This document shows, piece by piece, positions 7,508 through 63,395 of a DNA stretch of 64,000 nucleotides. The stretch's first letter is position 1. Each line of letters begins with the position of its first letter. Origin of the DNA: a virus. Under the pieces are notes generated by a model. The model saw only the letters and a list, made by a program, of their open reading frames with translations, did no database searches and was not told where the DNA came from. A program made the position numbers and the translations under genes. The DNA is taken from positions 69,874-133,873 of IMG/VR virus record IMGVR_UViG_3300021399_000007. One strand, 5' to 3'.

Positions 7508-7545
7508 TAAGTTTTTTTGATATAATAATATCATAAGAAAATAAC
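7508..7545 (+). promoter_or_regulatory. Middle-class promoter motif (T-rich upstream, TGATATAAT, no -35)
   Basis: ttttttGATATAATaatatcATAAGAaaataac; first of 15 copies of the family. Confidence 0.5.
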
Positions 7546-7575
7546 TTATTACATTTTTACAAAAGAGGAAAAGCC

Positions 7576-8082
7576 ATGTGGACATTAGACCGAATTACTA
7601 AAATGTGTATTGAATATTGCGGGAAGGCAGGTGTAAAGTTCAACTCACCTGTGATCATTAACGGTAGGCTAACCCGTACTCTTGGAAGATGTTTCTATAC
7701 TCGTATCGGCAATGTTTGGAATCCCGCAAAAATTGAAATTTCAAAACAATTACTTGAAACTTCCACAGATGAGTCCATTGAAGCTGTTATTGCTCATGAG
7801 TGCGCCCATTATGTAACTTGTGCTCTTACGCATGAAAATCATGGTCATGATTCCACATTTCGTTTCTATTGTGAAAAAATTGGAACAAATAATAGTATGA
7901 CTCATTATGATGATCTTGAGCGTACAAAGCCAAATGAAGAAATTTATAAATACACTCTCTATTGTTCAAATTGTGGCAAATTTATTGGTGGCAGGTCTCG
8001 TGCCTGCCGTATCACCAAGGAACCTTGGAATTTTTATACAAAATGTTGTGAAGCTGAAGTTAAAGTTATTAAAAACTGGTAA
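7576..8082 (+). CDS. SprT-like zinc metalloprotease with C-terminal zinc ribbon
   Basis: RTLGRC...IAHECAHY (HExxH) and CSNCGKF...C..C ribbon. Confidence 0.6.
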   Translation: MWTLDRITKMCIEYCGKAGVKFNSPVIINGRLTRTLGRCFYTRIGNVWNPAKIEISKQLLETSTDESIEAVIAHECAHYVTCALTHENHGHDSTFRFYCEKIGTNNSMTHYDDLERTKPNEEIYKYTLYCSNCGKFIGGRSRACRITKEPWNFYTKCCEAEVKVIKNW

Positions 8083-8087
8083 TAAAA

Positions 8088-8258
8088 ATGAATTGTAAAG
8101 AATGTAAACATTATCAAAATCAAACTTGCATATGGAACTATGATTATTTAGATACAGATTATGCATATGATTGTTGTGATTTTATTCATAAAAAGGAAAA
8201 TTATCACTTAAAAATATACATTTTTAAGGACAAAAAATATAAAAAGGAGAAAAAATGA
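8088..8258 (+). CDS. Small Cys-rich protein (56 aa)
   Basis: MNCKECKHYQNQTCIWNYDYLDTDYAYDCCDF... Confidence 0.35.
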   Translation: MNCKECKHYQNQTCIWNYDYLDTDYAYDCCDFIHKKENYHLKIYIFKDKKYKKEKK

Positions 8259-8397
8259 CTGGAGATGAATTAATTGGTTTCATTATTGCGAACCATTTAG
8301 AAGATTATGAATTTATAAGATATGATTATGGGGATAGGCATGATATTTATCCAGAAATAGATGAAGATAATCATCAGGTATTAATTTAATTTATTGA

Positions 8398-60767: not shown

Positions 60768-60810
60768 TAATTTTTTTGATATAATATAATTGTTAAATAA
60801 AAAAGGAAGG
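60768..60810 (+). promoter_or_regulatory. Middle-class promoter motif
   Basis: aataattttttTGATATAATATAATTGTTAAATAAAAAAGG. Confidence 0.5.
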
Positions 60811-60818
60811 TAAAAAAT

Positions 60819-63311
60819 ATGGGAAGATATGATAATGAAAATTGGAGTGAACAGCCCCAGATGAATCGTCAGCGAGATCTGGTTTTGTCCACAAATGAAT
60901 TTTGTTTTTTGCAGTCTAAAACCAATGGTGCAATTAAAACTTATACTGGTCCTATTACTATGACAATTTCCGCACAGGAATCTCTTGTCGTATTTAATGC
61001 CAAAACTAAGAAATTTGAGGAAACTCAAGATTTTGAAAAAGCTAAGCAGTTGTTTATTTCTGCACCTGAAGGTTGGTATGTAGTATTAAAGAATCCCGCT
61101 ACAGATAATTCTCATCCTGAGGCGGCAAAGGCTGTAAATAGTCCTACTCTTGAAATTGGACGTAAGATTAATATTGCGGGTCCTGTTTCGTTCTCTCTTT
61201 TCCCTGGTCAGATGACAAGAGTAATTAGAGGTCATAGACTTCGTTCTAACCAGTATCTTCTGGCCCGAGTTTATGATGCGGAAGCCGCTCGAAAAGGAAT
61301 TGGAACTGCAACTATTGTAGATACTGAAGGTAAGGAAGTTACTGCAACTCCTGAGGAATATTTTGTCGGTCAAATGATCGTTATTAAAGGTACAGAAGTA
61401 TCTTTCTATATTCCGCCAACAGGAATTGAAGTTATTCCTATTGAAAATAGTAATGAATATGTGCGCGATGCCGTTACCCTTGAGCGGCTAGAGTATGCAA
61501 TTCTGAAAGATGAAGATGGTGAAAAGAGATATATTCATGGCCCTGCTGTGGTATTTCCGAAGCCTACTGAGACTTTCGTAGCAGCTCCTAAGGGTGGTTT
61601 GATTTTCCGTGCTCTTGAACTTTCTCCTATTAGTGGTATTTATGTAAAAGTAATTGCTGCATATGATGAGAAAAAGAATGGTGAAACTATTCATCATCCT
61701 ATCGGAGAGGAATTGTTTATTACTGGTAATGACCAGATGATTTATTATCCTCGTCCTGAACATGCTATGATTCAGTATGATGGAAAATATATGCACCATG
61801 CCATCGCTATCCCTGAAGGTGAAGGTAGATATATTCTCAATAGACTTACTGGTGAAATTACTACAGTACGCGGTCCGCAGATGTATTTACCTGATCCCCG
61901 CACAGAAGTTGTTGTCAAAAGAAAGCTAACTAATAAAGAATGCGATCTTATGTATCCTGGTAACAGCGAAGTGCTAACCTATAACAGTGGACTTACTGAA
62001 CAGGCCGTTGAAAGAATGGCAAAGAAAGGTCTTACTGGTTCTGCGGTTACAGATGCACTTAATAGTGTATATTCTACTGCTAATCAGGAATCTGCGCTTG
62101 CTATTTTTGAAGCAAATGCTAATATTTCTCGCGGAGTAAGTTACACTAAACCGAGAACAATTACTCTTGATACTAAATATGAGGGTGTTGTCGCGGTAGA
62201 CGTTTGGACTGGATATGCAATTAATGTTGTATCTAAGTCTGGAGATAGAGAGGTTGTAATTGGACCTGCAACTCGTTTGTTTGATTATGATGAAACAGTA
62301 GAAGCAATTACTGTTCCTTGCGGAGATAAAGAGAATATTACAGCTTTTCTCAAAACTGAAAATAATAAAGTTTCTGATATTATTAACGCTCAGACTGCAG
62401 ATTTTGTTGATGTTCAGATTAAACTGAGTTACTATGTAGATTTCTTAAAAGATTATAAAGACTCTTGGTTTGCTGTAAACAATTATGCAAAATATTTGTG
62501 TGATAATATGCGTTCTCTTATCAAGAGAGAAATTAGAACATATAATATTAAGGATTTCTATGCAGATTCTACTGAAATTATTAGAAATATTGTCCTTGAT
62601 ATTAACACAGATGCAGAAACGGAAGCTACGGATAAGCCTTTTGGCAGACTTTTCAAAACAAATGGTATGCTTGTAAATGATGTTGATATTATTGGTATCG
62701 GCGTTGAAAAAGATATTGCCATGATTCTTGAAAAGCATCAGAATGAATTAATTCAGAAGAGTGTTGAACTTGCTGATGCGGCGGCCTATATGGAAGTTGT
62801 TACAGCTCTCGCTGATGTAAAGAAGAAAGAAGCTGAATTGAATAATGAAACAGCTCTATATGCTCTTGAACTTGAGCAGAAGAGAACTGAAGAGGAAATG
62901 CACAATGAAGAAATGATTCGTGCAAAGGAGCGCGAAGCTAAGGCCGCAGAAGCTCAGGCACAGAATGATCTTCAGGATATTTTGACAGCAATCCAGAGTG
63001 CAGAAATGGCTCGTATTAAAGAAAAGCAGGATGCAGAAATTGCTCATGCTAAAGAACTTGCGGAAATTGAAAAGGCTAAACAGGAAGCATATGCTGCTAC
63101 TGTAAAAGAAATTATGAGTTCTATCCAGCCTGATCTCATTGCAGCAATCAGTGCAAGTTCTCATGCAGAATTACTTAAAGAGGGAATGGCTAGTATGGCA
63201 CCTTATGCGCTTGCAAAAGATGAGTCTGTTGCGGATACAGTTAATAAACTTTTAAGAGGAACTCCTCTTGAAGAAGTTCTTGATAAAGTTTCTACTAAAG
63301 TAAATTTATAA
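60819..63311 (+). CDS. Large protein (830 aa) with N-terminal major-vault-protein-like beta repeats and C-terminal SPFH/coiled-coil region (MVP-like)
   Basis: N-terminal repeats resemble MVP repeats (...GPITMTISAQESLVVFNAKTKKFE...), central region, C-terminal ~200 aa Ala/Glu/Lys-rich coiled coil; no TAG codons. Confidence 0.35.
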   Translation: MGRYDNENWSEQPQMNRQRDLVLSTNEFCFLQSKTNGAIKTYTGPITMTISAQESLVVFNAKTKKFEETQDFEKAKQLFISAPEGWYVVLKNPATDNSHPEAAKAVNSPTLEIGRKINIAGPVSFSLFPGQMTRVIRGHRLRSNQYLLARVYDAEAARKGIGTATIVDTEGKEVTATPEEYFVGQMIVIKGTEVSFYIPPTGIEVIPIENSNEYVRDAVTLERLEYAILKDEDGEKRYIHGPAVVFPKPTETFVAAPKGGLIFRALELSPISGIYVKVIAAYDEKKNGETIHHPIGEELFITGNDQMIYYPRPEHAMIQYDGKYMHHAIAIPEGEGRYILNRLTGEITTVRGPQMYLPDPRTEVVVKRKLTNKECDLMYPGNSEVLTYNSGLTEQAVERMAKKGLTGSAVTDALNSVYSTANQESALAIFEANANISRGVSYTKPRTITLDTKYEGVVAVDVWTGYAINVVSKSGDREVVIGPATRLFDYDETVEAITVPCGDKENITAFLKTENNKVSDIINAQTADFVDVQIKLSYYVDFLKDYKDSWFAVNNYAKYLCDNMRSLIKREIRTYNIKDFYADSTEIIRNIVLDINTDAETEATDKPFGRLFKTNGMLVNDVDIIGIGVEKDIAMILEKHQNELIQKSVELADAAAYMEVVTALADVKKKEAELNNETALYALELEQKRTEEEMHNEEMIRAKEREAKAAEAQAQNDLQDILTAIQSAEMARIKEKQDAEIAHAKELAEIEKAKQEAYAATVKEIMSSIQPDLIAAISASSHAELLKEGMASMAPYALAKDESVADTVNKLLRGTPLEEVLDKVSTKVNL

Positions 63312-63349
63312 TATAAATTTTAAAGGAAGAATTAAAAACTCTTCCTTTA

Positions 63350-63395
63350 TTTTTTTAAAAAAATATGATATAATATAAATATATAAGAAAGGAAA
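63350..63395 (+). promoter_or_regulatory. Middle-class promoter motif
   Basis: ttttttaaaaaaatatgaTATAATATAAATATATAAGAAAGG. Confidence 0.5.

Follow-up and report, generated by a model that had tools for sequence, protein, structure and literature searches.

Two predicted families of SigA-type promoters and a SigA-like sigma factor in a large TAG-recoded phage

Introduction

The strong early promoters of coliphage T5, PN25 among them, are read by the host sigma-70. Bacillus phage SPO1 runs a cascade in which early SigA promoters are followed by middle promoters served by the sigma factor gp28 and by late promoters served by gp33/34. RpoD-like sigma factors also occur in cyanophages and other large phages, and to our knowledge no defined promoter set or role has been assigned to them. 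The subject of this study is a 64-kb stretch of viral DNA (the window), positions 69,874 to 133,873 of IMG/VR virus record IMGVR_UViG_3300021399_000007, which carries a sigma factor gene and many promoter-like repeats. A preliminary description, made from the sequence alone, had proposed early promoters, middle promoters lacking a -35 box, a late junction motif, and a phage sigma factor that may switch between the classes. Judged by their sequence, the repeats are about 25 promoters of the sigma-70/SigA type (TTGAnn, a 17-nucleotide (nt) spacer, TATAAT, and often a TG extension). They fall into two architectures, here called class A and class B, and both recur in related phages.

These promoters resemble those of T5, as we know them, in the full -35, the 17-nt spacer, TATAAT and the many near-identical copies per genome, and further in conserved A+T-rich blocks outside the hexamers and a predicted initial transcript that starts with A and runs, purine-rich, into the Shine-Dalgarno (SD) sequence. 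Unlike T5, the phage studied here has two architectures (one with a GC palindrome upstream), a fixed spacer in which a T-run is followed by an A-run, presumably a Gram-positive anaerobe as host, and a primary-type sigma factor of its own. Like SPO1, it is a Firmicutes phage with host-type early promoters and a sigma-70 family protein made from a host-readable promoter. The SPO1 sigmas, however, are highly divergent and have wholly different hexamers, whereas the sigma described here is about 50% identical to SigA and its promoters are still TTGA-N17-TATAAT. The 'rpoD' of Microcystis phage MaAM05 (48% identity) and the RpoD-like sigmas of cyanophages and large phages are likewise group-1/2-like proteins with regions 2-4, encoded in large phages; in contrast to those cases, the sigma and a promoter grammar are here found together across a family. 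With the TAG-recoded (code-15-like) gut phages (bioRxiv 10.1101/2021.08.26.457843; phAss-1 group, PMC10607447), the phage shares TAG codons concentrated in structural and lysis genes, a CUA tRNA and a predicted Clostridia host. Recoding has been proposed to delay the translation of late genes in such phages (bioRxiv 10.1101/2021.08.26.457843). Full-text searches found no 'sigma factor' in that preprint, neither 'sigma' nor 'promoter' in the phAss-1 paper, and, in the literature searched, no account of these motifs and none of the promoters or sigma factors of recoded Clostridia phages.

Results

Class-B promoters carry a -35 box

The preliminary description had listed fifteen copies of a T/A-rich element followed by TATAAT and an ATATAyATAAGATAAAG-like box. 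All fifteen were recovered where it had placed them, co-oriented on the plus strand, and each lies upstream of a plus-strand gene or tRNA (Table 1). The 23-mer TATAATATATACATAAGATAAAG had 6 matches when up to 3 mismatches were allowed and none in 100 shuffles, and a weight matrix built from other phages only gave at least 20 bits to 12 of the 15 copies and no hits in 30 Markov shuffles. The claim that these copies have no -35 box was wrong. Twelve of the 15 copies have TTGA exactly 23 nt before TATAAT, across a 17-nt spacer, and 13 have TTG there; the hexamer at that place is TTGATT, TTGAAA or TTGATC in twelve, TTGTTT in one and TTTATT in two. A sigma-70 scan scored the copies at 10-11 of 12 matches. 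Recognition through an extended -10 only, independent of a -35, does not describe them, as TTGA is kept at a fixed 17-nt spacing and the TG extension is present in only 9 of 15.

With four further copies, class B consists of TTGATT or TTGAAA, a T-run-then-A-run spacer, TATAAT, ATATAY and then the box ATAAGATAAAG. Two minus-strand copies, 7445(-) and 47869(-), had been missed; the two have TTGAAAAAATGAAAAAAATAT in common. The early promoter said to be tandemly duplicated at 3553-3642 is indeed a repeat pair, though not an exact repeat of about 60 nt: two 32-nt copies (3552-3583 and 3613-3644) are 94% identical (30/32, 2 mismatches) and stand at a 61-nt period. Because of its spacer, the pair belongs to class B and not to the early family.

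All listed promoters of both classes have a 17-nt spacer and the orientation of the downstream open reading frames (ORFs) or tRNAs, with 26-60 nt between -10 and start codon in most; 23 of 25 have TATAAT as their -10, and the other two have TATATT and TATACT. The predicted start is the A 7 nt downstream of the -10, from which a purine-rich leader would run into the SD sequence. The leader box ATAAGATAAAG runs into an extended SD, AGAAAGGAG.

Some elements next to the class-B promoters deserve mention. Three copies, the two with TTTATT and the one with TTGTTT, are placed directly on the T-tract of the terminator hairpin upstream of them. Hairpins of this kind adjoin class-B promoters at 10905-10935, 59232-59262, 63328-63358 and 11900-11925, and do so in relatives as well; at such places, TTGATTTTTT or TTTATTTTTT is the terminator T-tract and also the -35 and the start of the spacer. 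A motif yACAGCAAAa (CTyACAGCAA in relatives) is found at 17205, 17455, 20335, 23170 and 23328 (+), downstream of class-B promoters leading into tRNAs or noncoding stretches, and may mark where an RNA is processed or where a small RNA begins; a terminator-like hairpin closes the stretch 23150-23320. At the head of the long minus-strand late operon, 58031-58110 (-) carries a class-B-like TATATT-ATATAT-AGAAGAAG with no TTGA 16-18 nt upstream, and it alone is a candidate for a promoter that truly lacks a -35. At 14305-14350 (+), an extended -10 (TGGTATAAT) that has no -35 is followed immediately by a strong terminator hairpin (GGGAAGATAAAACTATCTTCCC and a T-run), in front of a TAG-recoded gene; this could be an attenuated promoter or a fortuitous one.

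Class-A promoters are linked to an upstream palindrome

The near-consensus early promoters with a ATCAAGAGAAAGGAG-type leader were confirmed at 206, 755, 1593, 2418, 2997 and 41769. These six class-A copies consist of the palindrome GCCCGGGC, an A/T (UP-like) tract, TTGACA or TTGACT (6/6), a variable spacer and the leader. The palindrome has exactly 4 copies in the 64 kb, each 31-59 nt upstream of a class-A -35. A variant of it stands at 3364. A G+C-rich noncoding stretch of about 190 nt (3360-3550, +), just upstream of the tandem pair, has repeated ATATGG...CGCGTAGAT units; it could serve as an origin or a packaging site, or encode an RNA.

In related phages cGCCCGGGCg recurs 31-81 nt upstream of TTGAC-type promoters, and CCCGG or CCGGG is found upstream of 39/395 TTGAC-type versus 7/334 TTGAT-type promoters. 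Counting relatives and window together, 32 copies of GCCCGGGC have a promoter no more than 130 nt downstream; it is of the TTGACA or TTGACT kind for 31 of them and of the TTGATT kind for none. The distances are grouped around 31, 44-50, 57-63 and 68-70 nt, roughly in 10-nt steps; this phasing is suggestive, with many of the sites coming from closely related contigs. The palindrome is a candidate operator.

Both architectures are conserved in related phages

Related loci were IMG/VR contigs fetched by the 23-mer motif or by the sigma protein. The exact 23-mer was present in 113 IMG/VR stretches, mostly contigs of 100-200 kb. In 224 unique copies from other phages, TTGA of the -35 holds 1.3-1.9 bits, as much as the -10 and the downstream box, and flanking positions hold about 0 bits. 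The "-35-less" reading is therefore refuted among the relatives also. The related loci contain 787 unique TTGAnn-N17-TATAAT sites, which divide into a TTGAC type (n=399) and a TTGAT type (n=336). Spacers of the TTGAC type are variable and 70% A+T, with T-run-then-A-run in 17% and an A/T tract upstream; those of the TTGAT type are 93% A+T, with T-run-then-A-run in 80%. The TTGAT consensus is TTGATT-TTTtatAAAAatTaTga-TATAAT-ATATAT-AtAA.atAAAgAaag. The -35 type and the spacer type were strongly correlated (330:69 versus 68:268). Since the same two architectures recur across related loci, the classes are older than this phage. The leader box accompanies TTGACA in other lineages, and phages whose sigma is more distant keep the TTGATT/T-A-spacer/ATATAT pattern but have a drifted leader.

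Bacterial genomes were searched for the exact 23-mer as well. Only 13 matches were obtained in 596 Gb (185,579 genomes), mostly on phage-like contigs of metagenome-assembled genomes or beside prophage genes, and the idea that the motif is a copied host housekeeping promoter was rejected on this ground. An isolate, [Clostridium] polysaccharolyticum DSM 1801, has this -10 and leader, combined with TTGACA, in front of small genes beside prophage amidase, holin-like and tail-fibre genes. This occurrence suggests that host SigA reads this -10 and leader, and it points to Lachnospiraceae-type hosts.

The phage sigma factor is a SigA homologue

The sigma-70 family gene noted at 16179-17093 is real, and its product is a homologue of SigA. 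The best matches were SigA of S. aureus, C. difficile and B. subtilis (E about 1e-80), and residues 16-303 aligned with SigA residues of about 83-369. As the alignment begins at about residue 83 of SigA, the phage protein has no region 1.1; over regions 1.2-4 its identity to SigA is about 50%. It matched the RpoD, RpoS and SigB-type NCBIfam models, below every curated RpoD cut-off (347 versus 555; 325 versus 572; RpoD_Cterm, 306 versus 354). Lacking region 1.1 and scoring below these cut-offs, it is RpoD-like (group-2-like) and not an RpoD orthologue. Precomputed Pfam annotation of homologues 98-100% identical to it gives r1_2, r2, r3 and r4, and metagenomes contain many homologues of at least 73% identity, on contigs as long as 141 kb.

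The segments of region 2.3/2.4, region 3.0 and region 4.2 that recognize the promoter are near-identical to those of B. subtilis SigA. The SigA segment of region 2.3/2.4 is FSTYATWWIRQAITR; region 3.0 reads IRIPVHIIE in the phage protein and IRIPVHMVE in SigA, and region 4.2 reads SRERVRQIE versus TRERIRQIE. In what we take to be the E. coli numbering, Y430, W434, Q437, R441, H455, E458, R584, E585, R588 and Q589 are kept, W433 is replaced by Y and T440 by S. The recognition segments are thus essentially those of SigA, so that the phage sigma should, by its sequence, read TTGAnn-N17-TATAAT. Cognate promoters with non-host hexamers, of the kind that belong to SPO1 gp28/gp34 or T4 gp55, were not found: every promoter-like repeat that was found is TTGAnn-N17-TATAAT, and the sole repeat that is not sigma-70-like is the local 13-mer junction motif treated below. 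The proposal that the sigma switches promoter classes was not supported, since the comparison with SigA predicts no new specificity. What survives of the proposed promoter classes is the two architectures, which are real and family-wide; the absence of a -35 in the second does not survive, and the sequence offers no evidence for a sigma-driven switch.

The W-to-Y change in region 2.3 looked invariant among relatives that had been fetched partly with the peptide YATYWIKQ. It was considered as a class-B signature and rejected, because SWW, TWW or TFW stands at that place in the sigmas of loci fetched through the DNA motif alone; those of L007 and L080, which were fetched independently of the peptide, keep WW. 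The only constant change is R to K, with WIKQ instead of WIRQ in all phage sigmas examined.

The sigma gene lies directly behind a class-B promoter (16111-16156), with no class-A promoter nearby. A B-type promoter precedes every sigma gene examined, and the lineages concerned include some with a sigma of 43-81% identity. It follows that host RNA polymerase must be able to read class B, at least initially.

Promoter class does not follow TAG content

Read with the standard code, large stretches of the window show only short ORFs; with TAG as a sense codon, ORFs of up to 3118 amino acids (aa) appear. TAG is the stop codon of 0/50 gene models and lies in frame in 20/50, and the phage is therefore TAG-recoded. 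In-frame TAG, the lack of TAG stops and a tRNA with anticodon CUA agree with code-15-like recoding. There are 13-14 tRNA genes at 16-22 kb, among them ones with anticodons CTA and TTA. The tRNA with anticodon TTA (20349-20423) would read TAA and, through wobble, TAG; yet TAA ends 37/50 genes. The window is part of a large uncultivated gut or rumen phage that uses TAG as a sense codon, and its host is probably one of the Clostridia, of Lachnospiraceae type.

Taking in-frame TAG as a proxy for lateness, we found that promoter class does not follow it. The class-A promoter 41769 precedes a RuvC-like ORF (41826-42317) with 5 in-frame TAGs, and B-type promoters precede TAG-recoded genes: 47869(-) stands before the tail gene with 24 TAGs, and 23143(+) before the 23.4-30 kb block. 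The suppressor tRNA (CTA) is located in the array behind the B promoters 17157 and 17589. This tRNA (18983-19058) is the probable gate for translating TAG-containing genes, and lateness is probably set largely by it, by analogy with what has been proposed for recoded phages.

A local junction motif near the lysis genes

The preliminary description had also proposed a late junction motif as a third promoter class; the repeat exists, and nothing found here shows a promoter role for it. The 13-nt motif AACTAAAGACCCA has 4 exact and 2 variant copies, all intergenic and all on the minus strand, between 32146 and 35948. The copies lie 12-90 nt before small ORFs and the endolysin gene; several of the small ORFs were labeled transmembrane, and one Cys-rich, by reading the translated sequences by eye. 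In one copy the TAA of the motif is the stop codon of the preceding ORF. The motif was absent upstream of the large late operons. No related late loci were found by a protein-based locus search, and a 14-mer scan of viral contigs returned single chance-level matches only, with no fetched locus holding two or more core copies, 14 bases being too short for such a scan. The junction motif is a real repeat tied to the lysis cassette.

Other features of the window

The window is A+T-rich (G+C about 33%). Annotated products are an SprT-like protein, DUF551 proteins, a PD-(D/E)XK endonuclease, an endolysin, tail proteins, a NinI-like phosphatase and a tRNA-His guanylyltransferase; a DUF2828 protein is about 40% identical to proteins from 160-kb Bacillus phages. 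Searches of Pfam and PHROGs with 40 proteins (the ORFs of 3118 and 1681 aa left out) assigned few functions and detected no second sigma, anti-sigma or phage RNA polymerase. The Rfam scan of the window reported tRNAs only. Megablast of 7.4-24 kb found no close DNA relative among GenBank phages, and one late tail-region protein had a single weak match there.

In two tRNA genes, at 21230-21783 (+) and about 19475-20330 (+), the anticodon arm seems to be interrupted by inserts, of about 470 and 760 nt respectively, that both encode a PD-(D/E)XK_5 endonuclease paralogue (ORFs 21293-21730 and 19538-20275; 44% identity). The halves joined in silico give tRNA calls. The gene at 21230-21783 reads as tRNA-Ala with a G3:U70 pair, its stems having been read by eye. 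Rfam gave no group I intron signal at 21150-21850; for the gene near 19475-20330, only the window-wide Rfam gathering scan applies, which reported nothing but tRNAs.

A pyrimidine-rich, low-complexity stretch (4200-4540, +), about 340 nt long and without an ORF, contains CTATTTATTTAT-like units. After it comes a block of A and T only (4860-4990) in which several TATAAT boxes overlap; this block lies upstream of a minus-strand gene.

Table 1. Predicted promoters, repeats and selected genes of the window.
Feature	Position	Strand	TATAAT start	Basis
Palindrome GCCCGGGC, 31 nt upstream of class-A -35 at 206	175-182	.		exact match
Class-A promoter TTGACA-N17-TGCTATAAT, leader ATCAAGAGAAAGGAA	206-255	+		sigma-70 scan, 12/12 match
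Palindrome GCCCGGGC, upstream of class-A promoter 755	696-703	.		exact match
Class-A promoter TTGACT-N17-TGCTATAAT, leader ATCAAATGAAAGAGAGG	755-805	+		sigma-70 scan
Palindrome GCCCGGGC, upstream of class-A promoter 1593	1562-1569	.		exact match
Class-A promoter TTGACA-N17-TGTTATAAT, leader ATCAAGAGAAAGGAG	1593-1642	+		sigma-70 scan
Palindrome GCCCGGGC, upstream of class-A promoter 2418	2374-2381	.		exact match
Class-A promoter TTGACA-N17-TGTTATATT, leader ATCAAAAGAAAGGAA	2418-2467	+		sigma-70 scan
Class-A promoter TTGACT-N17-TGTTATAAT, leader ATCAAAGAAAGGAG	2997-3045	+		sigma-70 scan
Tandem class-B-like promoters, TTGAAA, T/A spacer, TGTTATAAT	3552-3644	+		repeat comparison, promoter scan
Class-B-type promoter TTGAAA-N17-TATAAT-ATAGAT-AAGAAAATG, divergent from 7498 promoter	7423-7468	-		promoter scan
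Class-B promoter TTGATT-N17-TGATATAAT, upstream of SprT-like gene 7576-8082	7498-7543	+	7521	promoter scan
Class-B promoter	8394-8439	+	8417	weight matrix 56 bits
Class-B promoter, -35 TTTATT overlapping T-tract of upstream terminator hairpin	10924-10969	+	10947	59 bits
Class-B promoter	11917-11962	+	11940	weight matrix 32 bits
Class-B promoter	13243-13288	+	13266	weight matrix 64 bits
Class-B promoter (TTGAAA)	13803-13848	+	13826	weight matrix 52 bits
Class-B promoter	15155-15200	+	15178	weight matrix 48 bits
Class-B promoter directly upstream of sigma gene	16111-16156	+	16134	weight matrix 21 bits
RpoD/SigA-like sigma, 304 aa, regions 1.2, 2, 3, 4, no region 1.1	16179-17093	+		protein and profile searches
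Class-B promoter upstream of tRNA-Asn (17356) and tRNA array	17157-17202	+	17180	51 bits
Class-B promoter upstream of small ORF and tRNA-Lys (17678)	17589-17634	+	17612	30 bits
Amber-suppressor tRNA, anticodon CTA, in array downstream of class-B promoters	18983-19058	+		tRNA search
Second suppressor-type tRNA, anticodon TTA	20349-20423	+		tRNA search
Class-B promoter ahead of 23.4-30 kb block (including TAG-recoded genes)	23120-23165	+	23143	26 bits
ORF with TAG as sense codon	25571-29982	+		TAG read-through
Junction motif AACTAAAGACCCA, 90 nt upstream of endolysin gene	32146-32158	-		motif search
Junction variant AACTAAAGACATG, upstream of small ORF read as transmembrane	32343-32355	-		motif search
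Junction variant ACATAAAGACCCA	32506-32518	-		motif search
Junction motif, exact	35690-35702	-		motif search
Junction motif, exact, 20 nt before 23-codon ORF read as transmembrane	35809-35821	-		motif search
Junction motif, exact, 12 nt before small Cys-rich ORF	35936-35948	-		motif search
Class-A promoter TTGACA-N17-TATAAT, leader CCCAAGAGAAAGGAG, within minus-strand late block	41769-41815	+		sigma-70 scan
Tail gene, 1681 aa, 24 in-frame TAGs	42763-47808	-		TAG read-through
Class-B-type promoter TTGAAA-N17-TGTTATACT, precedes 1681-aa tail gene (24 TAGs)	47847-47892	-		promoter scan
Tape-measure-like ORF, 3118 aa, 84 in-frame TAGs	48115-57471	-		TAG read-through
Class-B promoter (TTGATC), divergent from minus-strand late operon start	58110-58155	+	58133	promoter scan
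Class-B promoter (TTGTTT), directly after terminator hairpin	59251-59296	+	59274	motif comparison
Class-B promoter	60757-60802	+	60780	weight matrix 22 bits
Class-B promoter (TTTATT), overlapping terminator T-tract	63346-63391	+	63369	weight matrix 30 bits

Discussion

We lean toward a reading in which a primary-type sigma, the host's and then the phage's, reads both promoter families, and lateness comes largely through the suppressor tRNA. From the sequence architecture, its conservation, the homology of the sigma and the arrangement of the genes, which were observed directly, we infer where transcripts start, when each sigma acts, what the palindrome does and the translational gating. RNA polymerase with a primary-type sigma would transcribe both the A and the B family. 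At the start of infection host SigA would read both; the phage sigma, lacking region 1.1, would join later and reinforce or replace host SigA without redirecting the polymerase to a new consensus, because its promoter-contact residues are kept. Any difference in timing between A and B would be encoded outside the hexamers, in the palindrome, the UP-like tract, the spacer or the discriminator. For example, class A might be shut off or activated via its upstream palindrome, or the kinetics might differ through spacer and discriminator. TAG-containing late genes would partly be transcribed from the same B-type promoters, and translation would be the main step at which they become late, through the suppressor tRNA(CUA) that B promoters in the tRNA array supply. 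The ATAAGATAAAG box at +1 may, as in T5 PN25, favor promoter escape and 5'-proximal ribosome binding.

Several observations weigh against this reading. The spacer, the discriminator and the first 11 transcribed bases of class B are conserved far beyond the known needs of SigA. The exact 23-mer is almost phage-specific, with 113 viral stretches versus 13 matches in 596 Gb of bacterial genomes. Lineages fetched by the DNA motif alone (L007, L051, L080 and L081) carry an RpoD-like sigma wherever the flank sufficed. Finally, the start of the late operon (about 58030-58190, minus strand) has a B-like -10 and leader without a TTGA -35, for which the model does not account.

Such observations could be taken to mean that class B is a genuine middle class whose preferred or sole reader is polymerase with the phage sigma bound, with TTGATT, the T/A-tract spacer and the AT-only discriminator as the grammar of that sigma; host SigA would give a weak first round at the sigma promoter, and positive autoregulation would follow. 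The B grammar is kept across divergent phages that all encode this sigma, a B-type promoter stands before every sigma gene examined, and the motif is rare in bacterial genomes. Moreover, a sigma without region 1.1 that stays under every curated RpoD equivalog cut-off is not simply a captured host gene, and WIKQ replaces WIRQ in all the phage sigmas examined. We nevertheless consider a dedicated sigma rather unlikely, as the residues that read the -35, the -10 and TG are conserved with SigA, the W-to-Y change of region 2.3 is not common to the independently fetched motif-bearing lineages (L007 and L080 keep WW), and the -10 and leader box are found in other settings too, joined to consensus TTGACA and, in a bacterial isolate, next to prophage genes; the co-occurrence of sigma and motif, for its part, is confounded by shared ancestry. 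A wider version of this idea can be put forward only tentatively. It holds that TAG-recoded Clostridia phages bring a region-1.1-less primary-type sigma together with a preferred B grammar, and that class A, with its UP-like tract and TTGACA, is a host-SigA early class shut off via the GCCCGGGC operator at helically phased distances, the whole being coupled to suppressor-tRNA gating. The host would then be taken over by means of a near-copy of its housekeeping sigma, whose specificity would lie outside the classic hexamers.

The remaining explanations leave the sigma aside or concern the junction motif. The A/B difference might have no regulatory meaning, the cassettes having spread by duplication, gene conversion and modular exchange, so that their similarity would reflect ancestry and not selection. 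Near-identical pairs (8417/10947, 13266/17180, 7445(-)/47869(-) and 3576/3637) are what such spread would leave, and class A is limited to one 3-kb module of higher G+C. This account seems improbable to us, given that both architectures, the spacer pattern and the palindrome link recur where the sigma is only 40-55% identical and the leaders have drifted, and that positions outside the boxes are not conserved. We attach equally little weight to the view that the extra parts of class B are recognized by something other than a sigma, the spacer being an operator or ATAAGATAAAG acting in RNA (ribosome binding, stability or processing). The spacer core TTTTTAAAAA is palindromic, the leader box would be transcribed under the predicted start and runs into the extended SD, and the window encodes helix-turn-helix and winged-helix candidates (sub-threshold Pfam), for example at 5419-6174 (-) and 13859-14293, respectively; however, no cognate binding protein was identified, the leader box drifts between lineages where the spacer pattern stays, and several copies precede tRNAs, which have no ribosome-binding site. 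As for AACTAAAGACCCA, six copies on one strand within 3.8 kb, in intergenic positions before small transmembrane-read ORFs and the endolysin gene, could suggest a late promoter for a late factor. That is hardly probable: the motif is limited to the lysis/tail-fibre sub-region and absent before the large late operons, one copy is only 12 nt from a start codon, another supplies the stop codon of the upstream gene, no related locus with two or more copies was found, and it resembles no sigma consensus known to us.

These uncultivated phages are abundant, and the literature searched holds no account of their transcription program. The present analysis provides a testable promoter map with two architectures, one of them with a candidate operator, and the promoters could serve as strong compact parts for Clostridia genetics. 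If it is true that the phage sigma prefers the B grammar, then sigma selectivity would be encoded in the spacer and/or the discriminator and not in the hexamers. The phage sigma itself is shown to be a housekeeping-type copy, and late timing in these phages is suggested to owe more to the suppressor tRNA than to any new class of promoter.

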